Shown in pieces: positions 4,273 to 58,068 of a stretch of 64,000 nt of DNA. The notes under the pieces are model-generated. The model worked only from the letters and a program-made list of their open reading frames with translations, ran no database searches and had not been told where the DNA came from. Source of the stretch: a virus; IMG/VR virus record IMGVR_UViG_3300045988_107889, positions 1-64,000 of that record; one strand, 5' to 3'. Made by a program: the position numbers and the translations under genes. Each line of letters begins with the position of its first letter. Positions within the stretch are counted from its first letter, which is position 1.

Positions 4273-5440
4273 CGTTTGCTAGAATCTTTCCGCGCAAAGG
4301 GTGTTTGTAGCTTGCTGTCCACTGGCACATCTCAAATGGCACTAATGTCCTGTGTTGAGGGCAAGGAACAATAGTGCTATTCAAAATAGTCTTCCAAGCG
4401 GAAATACTTTTCCCTAGGGTTATTGTGCCACTGATCCAGCATATCCCCATTTTCTTTGTTACTGTCAATTTCCCATCCGTGAAAGTGCCGGAAAGACCAG
4501 ATGTACTCGCAAATTCGTCGTACTCCCAAGTTTCGCTATAACATCCTACGCTTGCATCTACGGTCCCGGACAATGTCAACCTGCCATTTTTAAAAATTAG
4601 CGCCGCTTCCGGAGCTTCGTCGCCGTCATCGTATGTTTGAGATATTGTCATAATTGCGGAGCTAGTTTCTGGATCACCGGTGTCATTAAAACTTGTCTCA
4701 ATCTTATTCGTAACATGGACTGTATAATCACCATTTGTTACTCTGTCTTCGCCTTTGACAAGGATATCTTTGCCGGATATTTTGCCATCAATTATTAGCT
4801 CCGTAATATTGGTTTTTTTATCTGTTTTTAAAAGTAACTTTCCGCCACCAAGATTCATATTTCCATTATCCATCTTAAATATACTCCCCGCAGTATTCGC
4901 CAAAGGGTCAGAAGCAATTCCGTTGTAATTCTTAGATCTGAGTGTTCCAGTCACTTTAATGTCCTGAGCAAACAAATTCTCCGTGTCAATGTTTTTTGCT
5001 TTAGCTGCTCCCACCGCCAGCTTATCCGTTGTAACACATCCTGCGTCAAGAGCTTCCGTTATTACGGACCCTGTCGCTATCTTCGCCCCGTCAAAAAGTG
5101 TTGTGTCAGTCTTACTACACCAAGAGGCGAGCTTTTGATTCGCCTCATGCGCTTGATTGTACGCGGACTTTGATGCCTCATAAGAACTAGAAACGGACAC
5201 TTCAGAATAAGCGAACGTGCCATCTGTAAATTGTGTCAACACGCAAGTGTACAGCACGCTGGTCGCAGAACTATCGCTATACGTTGGCTCCGTCTCTATC
5301 CACCCGTTGCCAGGAGGAACAGATGTTGGTTTGCTAGGCGGGCTTAGTGTTGACACCTGAGTTTTGTAATACCGAGTCTCTGATTCCACACTAGTAACAT
5401 ACGCCAGTGTTATCATTGCAGAAGCTAGTACACTCATCAA
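4205..5440 (-). CDS. tail fibre / receptor-binding protein
   Basis: 411 aa, follows the other fibre genes. Ser/Thr/Gly-rich beta-type sequence. 4-nt start/stop overlap with the upstream gene. Confidence 0.6.
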   Translation of the reverse strand: MMSVLASAMITLAYVTSVESETRYYKTQVSTLSPPSKPTSVPPGNGWIETEPTYSDSSATSVLYTCVLTQFTDGTFAYSEVSVSSSYEASKSAYNQAHEANQKLASWCSKTDTTLFDGAKIATGSVITEALDAGCVTTDKLAVGAAKAKNIDTENLFAQDIKVTGTLRSKNYNGIASDPLANTAGSIFKMDNGNMNLGGGKLLLKTDKKTNITELIIDGKISGKDILVKGEDRVTNGDYTVHVTNKIETSFNDTGDPETSSAIMTISQTYDDGDEAPEAALIFKNGRLTLSGTVDASVGCYSETWEYDEFASTSGLSGTFTDGKLTVTKKMGICWISGTITLGKSISAWKTILNSTIVPCPQHRTLVPFEMCQWTASYKHPLRGKILANGGLQLVYGAAGNYVVSISYPID

Positions 5441-6483
5441 TTATCACCTTCCAGTTGAGCGACAAAAATTGCCTTGTTGTTTACTTGGTCTGCGTCAATA
5501 GTAAGAGTCTGGCCGGTCTTTGTCGTTGTCGTCTCTCCATCCTTATACCATTTAATCACTCCCAGCTGCGCAATTTCAGAGGCAGTCAATTCTTTGCCGC
5601 CCTTATACACGTGAGCGGTCAAAGTGGTGGCAATAGAAGTGTTCTTAAAAATAGTGCCGTTAGATGACGTGATAGAAATCGTTACCGCGTCTGCGCCGTC
5701 CGTCCCATTAGTGCCGTTTCTACTAACACTAAAAGAGGTAGTAGAGTTTCCATCATCGTAGTTAACCACGGTTTTAGCCCACAAGTATCCGCCCGCAGCA
5801 ACAGCAGGGATAGTAGTGCCCCAGTCAGACTCCGGCGGCGTGTTCCCGTTGGAGCTGGATGCGTAGGTAACAGAGGTGCTTGACACACCAACGCTGCTAC
5901 CGTCAGTCCCTTGGCGACTAACACTAAATGCCGTTGTTGAATTGCCATCGCTATAAGTCACCACAGTCTTAGTCCATAGATACTCGCCATTAGAAATAGC
6001 AGGAATTGAAGTCTGCCAGCCACTATCGGGGGCAGTCGTGCCATTAGCTCCCTTTGCATATGTAACGGATGTAGAGGATACCTTAACGCTTGTACCATTA
6101 GTTCCTGAGAAAGAAATGGCGAAGGTGAACTGCTTGTAAATTGTAATGTCATTACCAATATGAACCGGGATTTTTACCGCACCACCCTCTGTAACCTCGG
6201 ACGACACTGTAATTGTTAAGGTGGGGGCTGTAGTGCTTGTATCCTTTGAAACCGTCACGCCAGTTGGCTTCTCAATCTCGGACACATTGATTGTTACAGG
6301 GATCTGTGTCGCCCCTTGCAATGCGATAACCTGAGTAGTCGTACTACTGCCGTTAACAGCAGAAGTGGCTGTACCCGGAAAAGCGTGTGCTTCAGATGTC
6401 AGCATAACCGAATACGCATCTGTAATATCAGTTAATGTAATTTGATCAGATGACCTAATCATTTCTAAAAATCTCCTTATCAA
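5437..6483 (-). CDS. tail fibre protein with tandem ~65-aa domain repeats
   Basis: aa 127-191 and 192-256 are clear repeats (..VSSTSVTYA..NG.T.P.S.W.T.IPA...G.YLW.KTVV.Y.DGNSTT.FSVSR). The C-terminal module resembles the C-terminus of the 1224-aa tail protein. Confidence 0.7.
   Translation of the reverse strand: MIRRFLEMIRSSDQITLTDITDAYSVMLTSEAHAFPGTATSAVNGSSTTTQVIALQGATQIPVTINVSEIEKPTGVTVSKDTSTTAPTLTITVSSEVTEGGAVKIPVHIGNDITIYKQFTFAISFSGTNGTSVKVSSTSVTYAKGANGTTAPDSGWQTSIPAISNGEYLWTKTVVTYSDGNSTTAFSVSRQGTDGSSVGVSSTSVTYASSSNGNTPPESDWGTTIPAVAAGGYLWAKTVVNYDDGNSTTSFSVSRNGTNGTDGADAVTISITSSNGTIFKNTSIATTLTAHVYKGGKELTASEIAQLGVIKWYKDGETTTTKTGQTLTIDADQVNNKAIFVAQLEGDN
5716..6105 (-). repeat. in-frame tandem duplication (2 x 195 nt) inside the fibre gene
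   Basis: Repeat 1 is 5911-6105 and repeat 2 is 5716-5910, from the protein-level repeat. Confidence 0.8.
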
Positions 6484-36358: not shown

Positions 36359-37037
36359 AATTTTCTCCCTCTATATAAAACCGATTTCGCTGTGTCTTTT
36401 CAAATATTTCATTATGTAACTTTTTAAAGTCATTGCGTACAAGCTGAAACTTTCCAGCGTTATAAAGCGGAACCTCTATACGCAATCTAGTCTGAGCATA
36501 TTTACTAGTGGTTGTTTTCTTAGCTCGATGCCACACTGTAGTTGCGCTAGAGTCCAGCTTCGTGATGTACCCAAGCTTAATAAGCTCCGGTAAGTAGCTG
36601 TGGCTAATATGCTGTCTAGTGACACCGCACCACTCAGATAAAGCGGATAGGGAAATGTCAAATTCTCTATTCTTATTTGCGTACACCTTCGCATAGCATA
36701 GCAGAGCTAGAGCAAGTTTGCGTGTATTCTTTCCGTCAAACAAATTGACGATTCTGTTGATGTCTGTTTCGCTTATGTATAAAGTCACATTATCTTTCAA
36801 TCTATCATCACAATTACGCGCCGATTCAATAATGTCATTTACATTGTACTTCAAATAATTATCGGTACGCTTTGCCCACTCAAAAATCCTGTCTCTTGTT
36901 TCTCGGAAGGTACACCCTTCCTGGGTGTACCAACGAGCAATCATATAGGCGGCGCGGTAACGACCGCGTTCTGTTATCTTCTTTCCGTCAAGGTACTCTT
37001 TTACTTCATATACTTCATCTATCAAATGAGGGAACAT
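36351..37037 (-). CDS. winged-helix-like DNA-binding protein downstream of the RNA polymerase gene
   Basis: LSALSEWCGVTRQHISHSYLPELIKLGYITK looks like HTH/wHTH. Overlaps the end of RNAP exon 3. Confidence 0.5.
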   Translation of the reverse strand: MFPHLIDEVYEVKEYLDGKKITERGRYRAAYMIARWYTQEGCTFRETRDRIFEWAKRTDNYLKYNVNDIIESARNCDDRLKDNVTLYISETDINRIVNLFDGKNTRKLALALLCYAKVYANKNREFDISLSALSEWCGVTRQHISHSYLPELIKLGYITKLDSSATTVWHRAKKTTTSKYAQTRLRIEVPLYNAGKFQLVRNDFKKLHNEIFEKTQRNRFYIEGENYG

Positions 37038-37657
37038 CCTCCTTCTTTATCTTAATCATCGTATATCTCTTTCCTAGGTATTCGAGTTCTCCTGTATCAT
37101 CCTGCTTTGGCAGTTTGATGTCTGCCTGCTCGATATTGCTAACAATGCCAGCGCCGCCAACAACCCACTTAAACCGCTGATTCCACGTCCTGTGGTCATG
37201 GCATAACATGACGGCGGCGTTAGCAACCAGCGAGGCGTTGCCGTTACAAATAGAGTAGCAGCGATTCCTATACCGCTCGTACAGTAGGGCGTATGCTTTC
37301 TTGCGTTCCGCTTCCGCGTCCTCTCCATCGAGCTGTTTCAACTTGTGCGACAGCTCTTTTACCTCTGTGCAGAACGAGCGATAGACTTGCTCCATTTCCT
37401 TGTAGAGTTCGTCCGAAACAGGGATTTCATCGTTAATCATGATGTTATAGTCGAACTCTTGGTCAGCTCTTTTGTACCTGACGCCCTTCTTCCAATGCTC
37501 GATCTCCCAACACAGCTTATTCATATTGGACAGTGAACGAGACAGCTTCAGTCTTTCATAATACGGAGAGGCGTACTTCATAAAATAAGGGAGGGGGCGT
37601 CCATATTTTGAAATAGTGCGGGGCATAGGGTACAGGATTCCGGTCTTTGCGTAATCT
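37015..37657 (-). CDS. YonO/QDE-1-like single-subunit RNA polymerase, exon 3 of 3
   Basis: The frame is open upstream of the annotated Met back to 37657. Begins (A)GAT TAC GCA AAG ACC GGA = DYAKTG, then ...PLPYFMKY, which is RdRP-family-like. Confidence 0.7.
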
Positions 37658-38768
37658 CTTTTACACCCTCCGTTTCCGGATATTTGTTAGGGAATAGACT
37701 ATATCATTACCCGTAAGACACGGGCAGTCAGCGCTTCCATTTAAGGGGATCTCACCCACTGAGAGTTTCACTCAGCCGTACTCCTATTGCGGAATCTCAC
37801 CGCCAACGGGATAGTCGTTGCACCTTCCTTATTAAAGGCTTGGCACAGAATTATCATATAGCACATTGTTTTTAACTTATATTATTTGATGTACACCATT
37901 CATCCCATCCGTCAACATGTACGTGCTTCCACGTTCTGTTATTCTTTATACTGAGCACGATGCCGTAACTGATGTTATTCTTTTTTGAAACCGCAGTAAT
38001 ATTTTCTCCATTCATAAGCGATTCCTTTATCCCTTTAGCGACGTCTTCAGATATTTTAGCGGATTTGTTTTTGCTTCCTTGAAGCGCCTTTGAGATCTTT
38101 TCTCTCGTATAATCACTGACGACTCTTCCCGTCATAAGCTCTCGCAATTTATTTTTGTGTTCATCTGAGCACGGTAAATGTTTGCTTGACTCTGACATTT
38201 TTCGCTTCGTCTCTTCAGAAGCTTTTCGCCCAAGCATATGCTCCCGATTTTTCTCTCCGACGATACGCTTTGCGTGGTCGTTCATAGGCACCCCACGTTT
38301 CCCGCCTCCGCCATCCGAAATATTGTAGCAGCTCCCTTTATCTTTTAGTTCTTTTATGTAGTATATTTCAGCGGCATCGACGTCATCACTATCGCTACAA
38401 ATTTGCACAACTGAAAACGTGAAGGAGTCTGATCCGTATTTATTCCAGGCGTTTTGTAAATGCCTGTTATCGTGTGAATGATCATTTAATTTCCAACAAT
38501 GATTCCAAAATCTTCTTTGAAAATTTTGCTTGGTCTGCCCAATATATTGCTTGCCGTTAACTGTATTGGTAATAGAATATATTCCAAAAAGATCTTTATA
38601 TTTTTCTTCTTCTATAAATTTCAATAATACTCCTCTTGGTAACTCATCAGAATTTATTTTATGTGCTACTTAGATTTTCTCTGTTAGCCGGTTCTTGACC
38701 GACACCCTACATGTGTAGGTTCACTGACTTTGCACTACGCTGTTACCAGCGCAGGCCACCGATTGTTG
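37658..38768 (-). mobile_element. group I intron (1111 nt) carrying a GIY-YIG homing endonuclease ORF
   Basis: 5' splice site follows U (..AAAUCCAU|CAAC). Intron nt 10-13 GUGG pair with exon CCAU (U-G wobble), and nt 5-8 AAUC pair with the 3' exon GAUU (P10). The intron ends in G (..GUAAAAG|AGAUUAC). Contains a P7-type AAUGAUAUAGUCU. Shares blocks with the intron at 39053-39332. Confidence 0.75.
37872..38624 (-). CDS. GIY-YIG homing endonuclease (I-TevI-like, with NUMOD-type repeats and a C-terminal HTH)
   Basis: GIYSITNTVNGKQYIGQT..RRFWNH..N GIY-YIG core, repeated ..EETKRKMSES / DEHKNKLREL / REKISKAL motifs, TTG start preceded by GAGGAG. Confidence 0.85.
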   Translation of the reverse strand: MKFIEEEKYKDLFGIYSITNTVNGKQYIGQTKQNFQRRFWNHCWKLNDHSHDNRHLQNAWNKYGSDSFTFSVVQICSDSDDVDAAEIYYIKELKDKGSCYNISDGGGGKRGVPMNDHAKRIVGEKNREHMLGRKASEETKRKMSESSKHLPCSDEHKNKLRELMTGRVVSDYTREKISKALQGSKNKSAKISEDVAKGIKESLMNGENITAVSKKNNISYGIVLSIKNNRTWKHVHVDGWDEWCTSNNIS

Positions 38769-39052
38769 ATGGATTTACCTGTTAAGACACTTATAATGTC
38801 AATATACTTCTCATACTTATCTCTTTGTTCTTCTGTTTTACCACATCTGTTTCTGTATGCTGTTGCGTAATTACTGTACTCACCAATCAAATTCTTCATT
38901 GTCCGTAGGATTACTTTCAACCTGTTCTCTGGCGTAAATTCCTCCGGCTCTGTTGTAATCTTATCATCTACGTCTATAACAGGTATGGCGTTTTTTTCTA
39001 CGCCGTTTAGTAACCTGTCATCATCAAATACTAAAACTAAATCTCCGTCAAA
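38769..39052 (-). CDS. YonO/QDE-1-like RNA polymerase, exon 2 of 3
   Basis: No start codon. Frame is open from 39052: TTT GAC GGA GAT = FDGD...LVLVFDDD... and ends ..LTGKS-AU. The ORF-track ORF 38735-38920 is its 3' part running into the intron. Confidence 0.7.
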
Positions 39053-39332
39053 CTTCTACTCTCGTAGAAAGACTATATCATCTACCGCATAGCGGCAGCG
39101 GTGCGCTTGGAAGCCCGTATCAATAGGACTCCTACTGGGCTACACTCATCACCCATAGTCGTTGCACATTCCTTAAAGGCTTGCACAGGATTACCTTCCC
39201 GGCTTCCCCTGTTAGCTGAACAACTAGCAGTCATTTCCTACTGCTCCTGACGTTTGCTCAACACCCGCTGATAAACGGTTCACACCGAGCTTACACCTAC
39301 GTTACCGCAGGGAAGGACTTTGTTTAGGAGTA
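39053..39332 (-). mobile_element. group I intron (280 nt, ORF-less)
   Basis: 5' splice site follows U (GCAGAU|UACUCC). Intron nt 11-17 CAAAGUC pair with the 3' exon UUUG (P10) and the 5' exon GAU (P1, U-G). Ends ..GUAGAAG|UUUGAC. Contains GAUGAUAUAGUCU and GCAAGCCUUUAAGGAAUGUGCAACGACUAU blocks shared with the other intron. Confidence 0.75.
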
Positions 39333-40739
39333 ATCTGCTCCATTCAATCTTTGTGGGATTATTGATTTAGAATTGATGATGCACGTATTAACCAAATGAC
39401 TGAGGTACTTGCTTGTTAATTCATTATTGATAGCGTACAACACGACATTCTCACTATCACAAATGTGAGGGTTACGTGTAATCAACTTGCCGCCGTGCAT
39501 TGGCCCTTCTTTTGTTATACAGTAAAATTCATTGTCGCCGAGACAACCGTTAGGATCTAAACCAGCCGCCGCTTCCATGAATGCAATTAAGTCTGGTATC
39601 AGAAACTTGAAGCAGCTCTTGATCCATATCTTGCCGCAGCACATCTCGTCTATGTATTTAGTCAGCAGACTGATTAAGTAACTCCGCACTTCATATTGTT
39701 TAAGCATAGCGGGATTCTTTATTACGGACTTTGCATAGTCGTTTAAGGGACTGCACTTATCTGCCGTCAGCCCTAAGAAGCACATAGAGTAGAAGGGATC
39801 GCCGTCAATAATCTTTTGTGCCCACTCAATAGAGTCCGTAGCAAGCTCAACAAATTCTTGGTAGGGGAGGTTGAGCGTCTGAAGAACCTGGTAGTTGCAT
39901 CTCGTATAAACTGGCTCGATATCTTTATTGAAGTTCCATTTAGCAACGCCTAAGCAATAACCATACTTTTCGAATTGCTCCCAATAATATTCCCAGTCTG
40001 TTGCATCTTTGTTCGTCTGAAAATATTTGAAGCCCTTATACATACTCTTGCTCAAGATAATCATCGGCTCGGCGTCCGGGGTAACGTCATGCGACACGCC
40101 CCATATATCCTTGATAGATGTTACACCCCGCTCGGCGTAGAAGGTGGGGTAATCAACCTCGCAGGTAAGACCTTTGATATACGGCGCTCGCCAAAGTATC
40201 GTCGTCGGGCTATCAGCAGACGACAGCCGGAACTGAACCTCGTCCGTAATAGCCGGGTGGTGTATGCCACAACCGTCAAATGGAGTTACGTTGATATCTC
40301 TATATCCGTCCGCCACGCTCTTTTGCGTCCAGAGGATCTCTTTGCCATCAGCGTTGGTGAAAGATGTCTTTTCATCGTATATGTATTTGATATGCTGTTG
40401 CGGCAACACGCACTCGTAGTCCGGCACAACAATCACTTTAGGGCGGAAGCCATTCAAGCAATGGCAAGAAGAAAGGCATAGACCCCTATAAGCCATCAGC
40501 TTACTTATGACGGTCGGGCCGGGGCCAGCCCCCATAGTGATTGCCTCGTACACCGGATCTGATATAGCCGCGTCGATAAAGCTCAAGATAGAGTTGCGGG
40601 TCATGCTCGCCGATCGTTCGCACAGTACAAAGTGAGTGCCGTTTAACCAGAACCCATTCATAATTAGCTCCGTCATGACGTCTGTATCAGAGGAGCTACC
40701 CTTACAATCGACAAAACAAATACGCCGCGCACAGGTCAC
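39333..40739 (-). CDS. YonO/QDE-1-like RNA polymerase, exon 1 of 3 (5' end uncertain; frame open to 40892)
   Basis: Ends ...RLNGAD at 39333; the annotated ..YS* tail is intron read-through. The GTG at 40739 is the first canonical start. The frame continues 51 codons upstream to a CTG that lies 7 nt after GAGAGGTG. Confidence 0.7.
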
Positions 40740-40922
40740 ATCTTCGCCTGTGATACGCCGTATCTGATAGAATAGTAAATTGTCTGCCTGCTTTATTTCG
40801 TAGGGACGCAGATCTACCCGTAAAGAAAAATTGTTCTCTTTTAATAGCTTGAAAGCTATCTTGTATGTCGTGTATAGCTTAGGTGCGAACAGTTAAAAGC
40901 ACCTCTCTTATCATGAAAGTGA

Positions 40923-55571: not shown

Positions 55572-55647
55572 ACCAGCATAGTTTTAAATGGGAAAACAAC
55601 GGTCTCCAAAACCGTAGTTCTAGGTTCGAGTCTTAGTGCTGGTGCCA
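55572..55647 (+). tRNA. trnW-CCA: tRNA-Trp (CCA)
   Basis: ACCAGCA/UGCUGGU acceptor (A1-U72, G73), anticodon arm ACGGU-CUCCAAA-ACCGU, T-loop UUCGAGU, CCA encoded. Confidence 0.85.
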
Positions 55648-55714
55648 CGTGCAAGTTTAATTGCACGGTGTGTAGTGTGAAAAAAGTCATATATTGCTCT
55701 ATGTATATAACCTC

Positions 55715-55863
55715 ACGGCGTAAAAGAGGTTGACTGTCTGACCGCAGTTATTCCAGTGCAATTCTGGTTGCCGTACACGCTGCTCAAAGCGGGTGAAGAG
55801 GTGTGGCACACTCCTTCCGTGCCTCACTTATGACTTCAAGGCGGTGCAATTCCGCCTAGCAGC
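55715..55863 (+). ncRNA. two adjacent tRNA-like / degenerate tRNA elements sharing a hairpin loop UGCAAUU
   Basis: Unit 1 (55715-55774): ACGGCG...CCAG-UGCAAUU-CUGG-UUGCCGU. Unit 2 (55779-55863): GCUGCU...GGCAC-ACUCCUUCC-GUGCC...GGCGG-UGCAAUU-CCGCC-UAGCAGC. Both lack a D-stem and CCA. Confidence 0.35.
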
Positions 55864-56053
55864 TCTCAATCGCTCTAGTTAACTGGTTCTGGGGCGAGGG
55901 TCAAAACCAGCAACCTAAACATTGATTGCAGACACCTGGTTAAGTACAGGCTAGGCAAGAAAGCTCTCAGGCACGGTTGGGCAACACAATCCAGCCCTAT
56001 CCTTTGGTTAGGCCGACTGATTGATAGGGCGGTTGTGGTTGCTGAACAAATAT

Positions 56054-56144
56054 CTCCCTGTAGCTAAATTGGTTATAGCTTCCAACTTATAATTGGAAGG
56101 CCCTCATAAGGTATATGGTGATTCGAATTCACCCAGGGAGACCA
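56054..56144 (+). tRNA. tRNA with anticodon UAU (Ile2-type reading AUA) but a class II-like 19-nt variable arm
   Basis: CUCCCUG/CAGGGAG acceptor, D-arm GCUA..UAGC, anticodon arm UCCAA-CUUAUAA-UUGGA, variable region AGGCCCUCAUAAGGUAUAU, T-arm GGUGA-UUCGAAU-UCACC, A-CCA. Confidence 0.65.
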
Positions 56145-56195
56145 CGATACCACGATAAAAATCTAATTCCATAAATAAGAAAGTGAGGAACTAAT

Positions 56196-56849
56196 ATGAA
56201 CAAAGAAACTATGACCGTCCATAAAGCTCTTGCGGAGCTGAAAATTTTGGACGCTAGAATTTTCAACGCCACTTCTGGCAAAACATTTGTCGCCGCGAAG
56301 AAGGTGAGCGACAAAAAGATCGGCGGTGTGTTGGTCGAAACCCTCAAGAAGGATATGAAGTCTGATTATCAGTCTGTTACGGACTTGATTGCTCGTCGGA
56401 CTGCCATTAAGAGAGCAGTTGTGCTCTCTAATGCCAAAGCTAAGGTAGTAATTGGTGGTGAGACCTATACTGTGGCAGAAGCTATTGAAATGAAGAACCA
56501 TGGCCTCATGGCAAAGAGAGACTTGCTGGATGTAATGGTTCGGCAGTATGAAAAGGCTCGTGCCGAGGTCGCCAAACACGAAGGCGAGTGGATTGAAGCG
56601 AAAGCCGAGCAATACATTATGAATTTCCTTCAGTCGCAGCCCAAAGAGGCCAAGACAACCAAGGATTCTGAGGTCGTTAAGCGGTTGAGAGAAGAGTATA
56701 TTGCCAACAATACGTATGAACTCATTGATCCGCTTGACATTGGTAATGAAATCAAGGTTTTGAGCGATTGGATTGACGCGTTTACTGCGGATGTAGATTC
56801 TCAGCTGTCTGTGTCCAATGCGACCACTACAATCACCGTAGAATACTAA
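56196..56849 (+). CDS. hypothetical protein embedded in the tRNA array
   Basis: 217-aa ORF with RBS gtgaggaactaat-ATG. Helical and Lys/Glu-rich. Confidence 0.7.
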   Translation: MNKETMTVHKALAELKILDARIFNATSGKTFVAAKKVSDKKIGGVLVETLKKDMKSDYQSVTDLIARRTAIKRAVVLSNAKAKVVIGGETYTVAEAIEMKNHGLMAKRDLLDVMVRQYEKARAEVAKHEGEWIEAKAEQYIMNFLQSQPKEAKTTKDSEVVKRLREEYIANNTYELIDPLDIGNEIKVLSDWIDAFTADVDSQLSVSNATTTITVEY

Positions 56850-56856
56850 AATAATC

Positions 56857-57199
56857 AACTTGCTGCAACCCGAAAACCTAAAACGGTAACCCATCGTGCT
56901 GACGGCACTTGGTTCGATGTAAAAATGAACAAATATGTGCCAACTACAAGGCAAACTTGAAATTTTGTGCTTGTAAAAAGATTGGGCGGTTAATCCAAAT
57001 CTCTTATAAAAAGAAGATATTTGCTGTAAAGCTCAAATTTCAAAGCTCGAATTTCAAAATTCAAGGCTCAAAGATCTTCAGAAGATTAAAGTTCAAGGGT
57101 CAACGTTCAATGGTTAAAGTTTTACAAAATCCTGGGTTAATGGTTTGGGTCAGTTATCAACGCCCACGGGTCAACCACCAGGCTGGGTTGTAGCAAGTT
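56857..57199 (+). ncRNA. ~343-nt element closed by a 15-bp helix, containing TTCAA/GCTCAA-type short repeats
   Basis: AACUUGCUGCAACCC (56857-56871) pairs with GGGUUGUAGCAAGUU (57185-57199). The single difference is a G-U wobble only on the plus-strand RNA. The interior has aagctcaaatttca/aagctcgaatttca and ttcaagg(c/g)tcaa repeats. Confidence 0.4.
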
Positions 57200-57205
57200 C
57201 AATAT

Positions 57206-57290
57206 GCGGGATTGGCGGAATTGGTAGACGCATCGTGTTTAAGTCTCGATGTCGAAAGACGTAGGAGTTCGAGTCTCCTATCCCGTACCA
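57206..57290 (+). tRNA. trnL-UAA: tRNA-Leu (UAA)
   Basis: GCGGGAU/AUCCCGU acceptor, anticodon loop UUUAAGU, long variable arm, T-loop UUCGAGU, A-CCA. Confidence 0.8.
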
Positions 57291-57439
57291 AAGAAAAGCC
57301 CATAGTTTGCGGACTATGACACCTGAAAAGTGGCGGTTTGCTTCTGGTAGACCGTAGTAGTGTGTTGACATCCTGGAAGAGACAGGAGTTCCCCTTTTTG
57401 ATCCCCCTTACATAGCTACCCCGCTTTGCGGGGTAGCGT

Positions 57440-57515
57440 GGCCGATTAGTTTAAATGGTAAAACGGCGGATTTGTACCCCGCAGATGTCGAGTTCGAGCC
57501 TCGCATTGGCCTCCA
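57440..57515 (+). tRNA. trnT-UGU: tRNA-Thr (UGU)
   Basis: GGCCGAU/AUUGGCC acceptor, anticodon loop UUUGUAC, T-loop UUCGAGC, U-CCA. Confidence 0.8.
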
Positions 57516-57516
57516 T

Positions 57517-57590
57517 GCTACTATAGTTTAATGGTTGAACGGTTGTTTCGTAAGCAACAGGTTCCAGTTCGATTCTGGGTAGTAGCTCCA
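57517..57590 (+). tRNA. trnT-CGU: tRNA-Thr (CGU)
   Basis: GCUACUA/UAGUAGC acceptor, anticodon arm GUUGU-UUCGUAA-GCAAC, T-loop UUCGAUU, U-CCA. Confidence 0.85.
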
Positions 57591-57593
57591 TAT

Positions 57594-57668
57594 CTGGGTG
57601 TAGCGCAATGGAAGCGCTCCTGATTTGGGATCAGGAGGTTGTCAGTTCGAGCCTGACCACTCAGACCA
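57594..57668 (+). tRNA. trnP-UGG: tRNA-Pro (UGG)
   Basis: C1-G72 acceptor CUGGGUG/CACUCAG, anticodon arm CCUGA-UUUGGGA-UCAGG, A-CCA. Confidence 0.85.
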
Positions 57669-57670
57669 AT

Positions 57671-57745
57671 GCAGGCGTAGTTCAACGGCTAGAACACCGG
57701 TCTTCCAAACCGGAAACGCGAGATCGGCACTCGTCGCCTGCTCCA
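57671..57745 (+). tRNA. trnG-UCC: tRNA-Gly (UCC), non-canonical T-loop AUCGGCA
   Basis: GCAGGCG/CGCCUGC acceptor, anticodon arm CCGGU-CUUCCAA-ACCGG, U-CCA. Confidence 0.8.
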
Positions 57746-57851
57746 TATCAAGCAACAGAAAACGATTCTCCTACCTGTTATTGTTGATAAATCACCTCCT
57801 TTCTTTACATAGCCTGGAATGGCGTTAAACTCTGCTCTGCTTGATTTATAT

Positions 57852-57925
57852 AGCGCCGTAGCATAACGGTAATGCAACGGACTTTGACTCCGTAAACGGT
57901 AGTTCGACACTATCCGGCGCTGCCA
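57852..57925 (+). tRNA. trnQ-UUG: tRNA-Gln (UUG)
   Basis: AGCGCCG/CGGCGCU acceptor, anticodon arm ACGGA-CUUUGAC-UCCGU, T-loop UUCGACA, G-CCA. Confidence 0.8.
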
Positions 57926-57983
57926 CGTTCGTTTTATACGGACACTTGCTTTCATTAACCGGCGGTACCACCGCCGGTAACAT

Positions 57984-58068
57984 GTGGGCGTGATGTAATT
58001 GGCAAACATGCGAGATTTAGGTTCTCGTGTCGAAAGATGTGCGGGTTCGAACCCCGTCGCCCACTCCA
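57984..58068 (+). tRNA. trnL-UAG: tRNA-Leu (UAG)
   Basis: GUGGGCG/CGCCCAC acceptor, anticodon arm CGAGA-UUUAGGU-UCUCG, long variable arm, U-CCA. Confidence 0.85.

Follow-up and report, generated by a model that had tools for sequence, protein, structure and literature searches.

A probable group I self-splicing intron, free of an endonuclease gene, in the catalytic triad codons of a phage YonO-type RNA polymerase

The 64,000-nucleotide (nt) stretch of viral DNA analyzed here, positions 1 to 64,000 of IMG/VR record IMGVR_UViG_3300045988_107889 (hereafter, the window), carries a three-exon gene for a predicted YonO-type RNA polymerase; all features of this locus lie on the minus strand. Exon 1 (39333..40892), delimited by the list of open reading frames (ORFs), tblastn, and a predicted start codon, ends in ...LNGAD. 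Exon 2 (38769..39052) spans FDGD...SVLTGKSI according to the spliced reading and a homologue alignment, and exon 3 (37015..37657), defined by the same two lines of evidence and phrog_8308, runs from DYAKTG to the stop codon. Exons 1 and 2 are separated by intron 1, an ORF-less element of 280 nt (39332..39053) in which intron nucleotide n corresponds to window position 39333 - n. A second intron (37658..38768), missed in a preliminary description of the locus, lies 284 nt downstream in the same gene. Intron 1 was delineated by its exact absence or presence in relatives, a match to the Rfam family RF00028, and a drawable core. On this basis, it is very probably a self-splicing group I intron of the phage IA type (IA2-like) situated within the codons of the catalytic triad of the polymerase.

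Counted from a GTG codon, the spliced product comprises 777 amino acids (aa). It matches Pfam RdRP (PF05183) over residues 23-599 (E = 1e-15, 58 bits, cut-off 23.8) and phrog_8308 over residues 16-763, across both junctions (E = 1e-79). A tblastn search against annotated phages found the YonO family, with SPβ yonO at ~24% identity; the best matches were uninterrupted over residues 5-770, at 42.5% for MT836002 and 39% for Thomasclavelia phages TR-TP1/TP2. When aligned with MAFFT, homologues read LNG[AC]D[FY]DGD and GK.[IV]D..KTG without interruption. The uninterrupted triad motif is present in MT836002, Thomasclavelia phage TR-TP1, and Enterocloster phage PMBT24, and the window DFDGD aligns with the DNDGD triad of YonO from the SPβ-like phage Goe11. 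Judged by these similarities, the host gene encodes a phage single-chain, two-barrel RNA polymerase of the YonO family (PF05183 type), predicted to be DNA-dependent. Changing the YonO aspartate triad to asparagines abolishes activity, and YonO transcribes the late genes of SPβ (Forrest et al., PMC5467207). Intron 1 parts the codon of the first triad aspartate from those of the second and third (D|FDGD); intron-less homologues read straight through the motif, which bears out the initial placement of the insertion inside the catalytic DFDGD codons. An intron at the same site was considered for Enterocloster phages, whose tblastn matches stop at residue ~467, and was rejected because the PMBT24 gene is continuous; the break thus reflects divergence only. 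Searching PDB sequences with the spliced protein gave nothing useful, and a scan of genome contigs found no relative.

The mechanically assigned ORF starts at GTG 40739, and the frame is open further upstream. The N-terminal 50 residues upstream of this GTG align to the N terminus of the TR-TP1 RNA polymerase (tblastn E = 1e-14), and the 51 codons ahead of it (40740-40892) are conserved in five relatives. A CTG at 40892..40890, located directly after a stop codon and preceded 8-9 nt upstream by GAGAGG, is likewise conserved in 5 relatives. Translation probably begins at this CTG, which would give a polymerase of ~828 aa.

At position 39333, exon 1 stops with ...GGAGCAGAU, and intron 1 opens with UACUCC at 39332. 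The intron closes with ...GAGAGUAGAAG at 39053, and exon 2 opens with UUUGACGGAGAU at 39052. Across the intron, the RNA reads 5' to 3' as ...AAUGGAGCAGAU|UACUCCUAAACAAAGUCC...GAUGAUAUAGUCUUUCUACGAGAGUAGAAG|UUUGACGGAGAUUUAGUU.... The upstream ORF (40739..39324) runs into intron 1 and closes with ...IIPQRLNGADYS and a stop, i.e., NGADYS followed by termination after two intron codons; the stop two codons after GADY is indeed intron read-through, as had been proposed from the sequence. Excising 39332..39053 joins GAU to UUU GAC GGA GAU, yielding LNGAD|FDGDLVLVFDDD, which reads LNGAD|FDGDLV. The ligated exon junction is GGAGCAGAU|UUUGACGGAGAU (RNA GCAGAU|UUUGAC). A separate downstream start, raised as an alternative in the preliminary description, finds no support at the locus, where the first in-frame ATG, GTG, or TTG occurs 44 codons after FDGD.

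Evidence for the boundaries that is independent of base pairing with the internal guide came from natural alleles that are 89-97% identical in the exons and lack exactly these 280 nt. Close relatives were recovered from IMG/VR and metagenomes by pattern scans with the spliced protein; their exons are 88-97% identical, and alleles were dissected by blastn with junctions read directly. One relative (L129) lacks both introns, and its uninterrupted 777-aa ORF reads LNGADFDGDLV. Two more (L004 and L130, whose identical blastn values mean that they may be one sequence from two databases) lack intron 1 and carry intron 2 with its endonuclease ORF, and L134 lacks intron 1 on a contig that ends before the intron 2 site. 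Among the occupied alleles, L005, L006, L007, and L133 have an intron 1 of 278-279 nt (~97% identical) and an ORF-less intron 2 of 309-310 nt; L132 has intron 1 and an endonuclease-bearing intron 2, as in the window; and L131 has intron 1 with an extra 563 nt and no intron 2. Empty sites have the flanks ggagcagat|tttgacggagat, occupied alleles have the same flanks, and there is no target-site duplication. The intron-less alleles thus equal the predicted ligated exons, a DNA-level proxy for splicing.

This comparison fixes the boundaries to within 1 nt, owing to a T|T ambiguity. Within that ambiguity, only the register of the preliminary description gives both a U at -1 and a terminal G. Its claim that exon 1 ends in U and the intron in G holds in the minus-strand reading, with the RF00028 alignment ending on G39053. 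The ORF-less copies of intron 1 are 96-99% identical to one another, compared with 88-96% for exon 1; the high intron identity fits structural constraint or recent spread. All three exons are open and conserved in every intron-bearing allele. The designation "ORF-less" is also apt, as indels in relatives disrupt both ~50-aa ORFs of intron 1.

The intron RNA can be drawn as the paired (P) and joining (J) segments of a group I intron. An internal guide, CAAAGUC (nt 11-17, 39316..39322), is read directly from the sequence and is complementary to the ligated junction GAU|UUUG, as originally described. Its 3' part (G15-C17, GUC) pairs with the 5' exon GAU in P1, in which U39333, or U(-1), forms a wobble with G15, followed by A-U16 and G-C17; an extension of U19-C21 with GAG(-8..-6) is possible. 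The contiguous CAAA (C11-A14) pairs with UUUG of the 3' exon in P10. P2 (CCUGCG-GUAA-CGUAGG, nt 22-37, 39296..39311) consists of standard pairs capped by a GNRA loop. Its G25·U34 becomes A-U in three variants. Intron 2 has a hairpin of this type, likewise with a GUAA loop, and so does L098, a full-length, diverged relative located in a ribonucleotide reductase gene. The 5' strand of P3 (CGGUGUG, nt 46-52, 39281..39287) forms 7/7 pairs with its 3' strand (CGCACCG, nt 228-234, 39099..39105), which follows a conserved AAG and is supported by pairing and by the class test described below.

The P4-P5-P6 domain (nt 121-167, 39166..39212) aligns to RF00028 with high posterior probability, and all of its pairs are standard. 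It comprises P4 ACAGGG/UCCUGU (nt 121-126 with 143-148), J4/5 GAA, P5 GCC/GGU (nt 130-140), J5/4 AA, P6 GC/GU, and a minimal P6a, CCU-UUA-AGG (nt 149-167). The 5' strand of P7, GACUA (nt 173-177, 39156..39160), is preceded by J6/7 GCAAC, matches the RF00028 consensus AGACUA, and forms pairs with the UAGUC of nt 258-262. P7.1 (nt 178-197) and P7.2 (nt 201-223; together 39110..39155) follow P7 ahead of the P3 3' strand and were drawn as pairs and compared among variants; equivalent hairpins occur in L098, intron 2, and canonical relatives. P8 (GCCGC-UAU-GCGGU, nt 237-249, 39084..39096) was drawn likewise; its loop positions vary among relatives, and its innermost pair is lost in L131. J8/7 AGAUGAUA and the P7 3' strand UAGUC (nt 250-262, 39071..39083) match the RF00028 consensus GAUAUAGUC with a posterior of ~1. 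The preliminary description had reported GAUGAUAUAGUCU as a P7/P3-type block. That string is present at nt 251-263 and was mislabeled, as it is J8/7 with the P7 3' strand and not P3. P9 (UUCUAC-GAGA-GUAGAA, nt 264-279) is followed by the terminal guanosine, ωG (nt 280 = 39053; together 39053..39069), on which the RF00028 alignment ends.

All P3-P9 core helices can thus be drawn with standard pairs, giving a core of the kind presumed at the outset. The P4-P5-P6 and P3-P7-P8-P9 domains are present with a P3/P7 pseudoknot, and the terminal G280 accompanies P10. GCAAC-GACUA and GAUGAUA-UAGUC agree with the RF00028 consensus and recur unchanged in introns scoring 70-99 bits. By alignment, G173-C262 would be the guanosine-binding pair. 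The P7.1/P7.2 pairings place the intron in subgroup IA by class criteria summarized in PMC3984707; "IA2" is assigned by resemblance rather than by subgroup-specific models, hence IA2-like.

As first drawn, 14/15 helix segments were fully standard-paired. P7.2 required a corrected register, since the first one left mismatches in variants and a 1-nt shift made all variants compatible. Across six intron 1 variants, 99.8% of cells pair; sliding the partners by 1-3 columns lowers this to 32-46%. Compensatory change affects two pairs, U93-A102 (to U·G and C-G) and C206-G218 in P7.2 (to U·G in L007 and U-A in L131). Seven further helix positions change compatibly, U205·G219 to U-A being a P7.2 example, and one pair, the innermost of P8, is lost. 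L098 and intron 2 retain every helix with different sequences in a hand-anchored string comparison; a MAFFT alignment of these two with intron 1 was misaligned, and the pair counts are not based on it. Relative to dinucleotide shuffles, the minimum free energy (MFE) z-score is -1.83 for intron 1 and +1.61 for the adjoining 280 nt of exon.

At the gathering threshold, an Rfam search of the whole window returned no group I match. With a permissive local search of 1.8 kb, RF00028 aligned 39270..39053 at 22.4 bits (E = 0.005), confidently covering P4-P6, J6/7-P7, J8/7-P7', and P9 and stopping on the terminal G, and no other Rfam family fits intron 1. The covariance-model check suggested at the outset recovered part of the core and the 3' end of the intron at a score below threshold. 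To place this score in context, the motif pair GCAACGACUAU...UGAUAUAGUC was found in at least 119 IMG/VR loci. All 17 of 17 sampled loci with the pair have RF00028 matches, and 14/18 intron hits reach 50 bits (most 70-99), making the pair diagnostic of group I introns. In canonical members (L021, L060, and L120; 84-94 bits), Rfam assigns P3 as NNNN-GUG / CGC-NNNN, followed by J3/4 AAC or AAU and then P4. The P3 of intron 1 has this class format, with 63 nt in two hairpins inserted between GUG-AAC and UAA-P4. When the format was tested across the class, the four variable pairs all formed in 47/47 members, in 22 combinations; shuffling partners gave 5.8 combinations on average and 15 at most. 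Anchors for this test were picked regardless of complementarity, replacing an earlier survey that was circular because it selected for complementarity. Two other candidates for P3, nt 63-71 with 230-237 (8 bp) and a 4-bp CAGC/GCUG helix adjacent to P4, were rejected by homology to the Rfam-aligned relatives, which gives nt 46-52 with 228-234.

The inserted J3/4 domain (nt 56-118, 63 nt, 39215..39277) keeps the covariance model from placing P3 and P8, which accounts for the low RF00028 score; the sub-threshold value is a failure of detection and not of structure. The domain consists of hairpin A (nt 56-67) and hairpin B (nt 73-116), the latter with an inner stem (nt 89-106) and the loop AGGAAAUG. 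Substitutions at U93-A102 and G76·U113 (to A-U) support its pairs. L098 (46.5 bits) has the same kind of insertion with an identical inner-hairpin loop, and the form is shared by intron 2 and missing from canonical relatives, in which P4 directly follows P3-AAC. Hairpin domains in J3/4 were observed in approximately 10/67 introns of the class (including intron 1, L098, intron 2, L112, L127, L059, L038, L012, and L031).

Several results weigh against a well-formed group I intron. The RF00028 score misses the 50-bit gathering score, and the E-value of 0.005 is valid only for the 1.8-kb search. The guide is matched by 2135/20000 shuffles of the first 40 nt (10.7%) and alone is not beyond chance. 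P1 has only 3 contiguous base pairs, an internal loop, and then 3 more, and in isolation it is valued at -7.3 kcal/mol versus -14.4 kcal/mol for a local GGAG/CUCC hairpin. P6 and P6a together comprise a minimal 2 + 3 bp, and P8 consists of 4-5 bp closed by a 3-nt loop. The nested fold proposed here amounts to -68.6 kcal/mol versus a pseudoknot-free MFE of -92.6 kcal/mol, and two alternatives compete with P3, namely the 8-bp pairing of nt 63-71 with 230-237 and a CGGU-GUGA-ACCG hairpin. Within-family covariation is sparse, with 31/500 shuffles reaching the observed score. Such weak helices and competing pairings are not unusual among phage introns; they leave room for inefficient or factor-assisted splicing.

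These observations invite other explanations of the 280 nt. Presence/absence polymorphism would also be displayed by inserted DNA other than an intron, for example, a miniature transposable element, and the gene might instead be split into separately translated halves that assemble, given that phage multisubunit RNA polymerases commonly have split subunits. Neither version is at all likely. The element lacks a target-site duplication, its terminal inverted repeats do not exceed 5 nt, its empty sites are exact, a group I core is present, and the terminal nucleotides obey the group I rule. Because the first in-frame start lies 44 codons past FDGD, any separately translated C-terminal fragment would miss two of the three catalytic aspartates, and as judged from the translated frames, such halves cannot function. 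Still less probable is a coincidental resemblance in which the RNA is another structured element, for instance, a group II intron or a translational bypass element. The sub-threshold Rfam score leans that way; however, no other family fits, and a length of 280 nt falls far below that of a group II intron and greatly exceeds known bypass gaps. The covarying class format of P3, together with the J6/7-P7 and J8/7-P7' strings shared with high-scoring introns, also argues for group I.

More in keeping with the weak points is a decayed group I intron that self-splices inefficiently, has lost its endonuclease ORF, and is nearing loss. It would require an RNA chaperone from host or phage or a maturase-like factor, or else the polymerase gene would effectively be a pseudogene. 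The weak or minimal P1, P6/P6a, and P8, the pairing that competes with P3, and the low Rfam score are compatible with decay, as is the ORF-less state, which in the established model is the expected penultimate stage of the homing cycle (review, PMC3984707). We nonetheless regard decay as improbable, since six diverged copies preserve nearly every pair with compensatory or compatible substitutions, the core is invariant despite exon differences of up to 12%, and the three exons remain open and conserved in every intron-bearing allele. Loss of the polymerase would probably be lethal to the present phage, given that the YonO-type enzyme transcribes the SPβ late genes (PMC5467207). A functional group I intron thus remains the preferred explanation: intron 1 is real, well formed, evolutionarily active, and biologically ordinary.

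If intron 1 acts as its architecture suggests, the pre-mRNA would fold into the P3-P9 and P4-P6 core, and P1 would position its U·G pair where the 5' exon meets the intron. This 5' splice site would be attacked by an exogenous guanosine held in P7. The terminal G would then take the same P7 site while P10 (UUUG/CAAA) aligns the 3' exon, and the exons would be ligated, restoring LNGADFDGD and a polymerase of ~828 aa. We infer both catalysis and the timing of splicing. Without splicing, translation would halt two codons into intron 1, and no active enzyme would be possible. The role of the polymerase in late transcription in this phage is an extension from SPβ.

The same locus provides evidence of intron mobility. 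The extra DNA of L131 (3059-3621, ERZ1034897 NODE-20) lies between intron nt 153 and 163, in the loop of P6a, and is closed by a perfect 10-bp stem. Its ORF encodes an endonuclease with HNH_3 and HTH_7 domains (Pfam E = 1e-10); an endonuclease-bearing form of the same intron therefore exists. This ORF has no canonical in-frame start before residue ~58, and a candidate for the start codon is an AUU located 9 nt downstream of an AAGGAG. The window copy itself has no conserved ORF. Presence/absence polymorphism occurs at one exact site in a conserved motif with identical flanks, and we conclude that intron 1 is mobile or was so recently. The idea that intron 1 hitch-hikes on the intron 2 endonuclease was considered and is not supported, as intron 1 and endonuclease-bearing intron 2 occur in all combinations. 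Comparison of L004/L130 with the window showed 99.5% identity in intron 2 and 98.9% in exon 2 but only ~95% in exons 1 and 3. This pattern is expected from co-conversion during homing, although intron 1 is absent there.

In the simplest views, the window copy would be either a derivative that has lost its endonuclease ORF or a precursor that never gained one; in both cases, the direction of ORF gain or loss is ours to infer. Such a copy would depend entirely on recombination or on an endonuclease provided in trans for its spread. Immunity to the L131-type endonuclease is expected of intron-bearing alleles, as they lack the intact target sequence, a general property of homing introns (PMC3984707). 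A bolder proposal, which we hold to be possible yet rather unlikely, is that the ORF-less intron is kept because it is beneficial. By splitting the DFDGD target, it would immunize the essential polymerase gene against the HNH endonuclease of L131-type introns in co-circulating relatives, and the GIY-YIG intron downstream would attack intron-less competitors. The gene would then be a two-site interference battleground among gut phages, as shown for ΦPA3/ΦKZ, and the J3/4 domain together with the P3 competitor could make splicing, and hence late transcription, conditional.

Phage IA-type (IA2-like) introns include those of T4 td/nrdB and Staphylococcus phage Twort orf142, and insertion of group I introns into catalytic motifs of essential phage genes is classic. 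Intron 1 shares with its IA-type relatives (L021, L060, L120, and L098) the U·G 5' splice site, P10, terminal G, and P2 GNRA loop; the P3 format NNNN-GUG / CGC-NNNN; P4-P6 with a GAA J4/5; J6/7-P7 GCAACGACUA; P7.1/P7.2 between P7 and P3'; J8/7-P7' GAUGAUAUAGUC; and a P9 hairpin directly before ωG. It departs from canonical IA-type introns in its 63-nt J3/4 domain, minimal P6/P6a, and short P1, hence the 22.4 bits. The nearest functional parallel is ΦPA3, in which a group I intron with the HNH endonuclease gp210 resides in a virion RNA polymerase β-subunit gene, next to conserved aspartates; that intron, with its endonuclease, has been characterized and found to mediate competition between phages (Birkholz et al., Science 2024, PMC11620839). 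In both cases, a group I intron interrupts a phage polymerase related to cellular RNA polymerases beside conserved aspartates, the intron is linked to an HNH endonuclease (in the present case, only in the L131 allele), and intron-plus and intron-minus relatives coexist. Unlike in ΦPA3, the present host gene encodes a single-chain YonO-type enzyme rather than a β subunit, insertion is into the metal-binding DxDGD triad of β' type, and the window copy is endonuclease-free. There is also a resemblance to collaborative or trans-mobilized ORF-less phage introns (PMC3984707), in that other phages of the population encode a matching endonuclease (the L131 HNH protein) and a GIY-YIG intron is found at a distance of 284 nt; unlike in those systems, no free-standing endonuclease was identified next to the polymerase gene.

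The intron has practical consequences for annotation. Gene callers would report a truncated 471-aa "RdRP-like" ORF and fragments, whereas the real product would be ~828 aa from three exons, and the same problem affects cultured SPβ-like phages, where the gene appears as yonO_1/yonO_2. Single-chain YonO-type polymerase genes join the essential phage genes that carry group I introns at catalytic motifs. Knowledge of how group I introns work is unchanged by intron 1. The allelic series, which comprises empty, ORF-less, and HNH-bearing states at site 1 and GIY-YIG-bearing, ORF-less, and empty states at the second site, offers a ready-made system in which to examine the homing cycle of introns and possible interference between gut phages.

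Intron 2, of 1111 nt, is a paralogous group I intron at GKSI|DYAKTG that matches RF00028 at 24.3 bits; its predicted ligated junction is AAAUCCAU|AGAUUACGC. It shares with intron 1 the P2 type, the P3 format, the J3/4 insertion, and the P7 core. An ORF in its P5 region (38624..37872) encodes a GIY-YIG/NUMOD3 endonuclease (Pfam GIY-YIG E = 1.6e-13; phrog_314 "homing endonuclease" E = 5e-42). In relatives, this site is either empty or occupied by an ORF-less form of 309-310 nt. A counterpart exists in Bacillus phage vB_BsuS-Goe11 (MT601272.1), where positions 4506-5812 are annotated as yonO_1, hypothetical protein, and yonO_2 without an intron annotation. The middle ORF is a GIY-YIG protein resembling the intron 2 endonuclease, and the flanking RNA is a weak RF00028 match (18.9 bits). 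Given the same polymerase family, a very similar group I 3' half, and the same ID|xAKT site, the Goe11 insertion corresponds to intron 2 and not to intron 1 at DFDGD. A triad-site intron was not found in the SPβ-like records examined. The tblastn matches in phi3T, SPR, and Goe14 also stop early. In our literature searches, no paper was found to report an intron within a YonO-type gene, the Goe11 insertion included.

The closest match to the intron 1 core among annotated phages is in Staphylococcus phage PMBT8 (MK893987.1, ~2501-2599), with 76-95% identity over 39-98 nt. It falls in an unannotated gap with a coding sequence for "DNA polymerase III alpha subunit" on one side and hypothetical ORFs around it; PT1-1 and PT94 are similar. 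From this arrangement, the match looks like an unannotated intron in the DNA polymerase III alpha subunit gene. Elsewhere in the window, on the plus strand, are a Pistol ribozyme (RF02679, 49449-49526; 66.9 bits against a 34.5-bit threshold) and a cluster of nine tRNA genes detected with Rfam (55572-58065). Together with the YonO-type polymerase, the tRNA cluster fits a ~100-kb phage infecting Bacillota, and related contigs are 92-109 kb in length.

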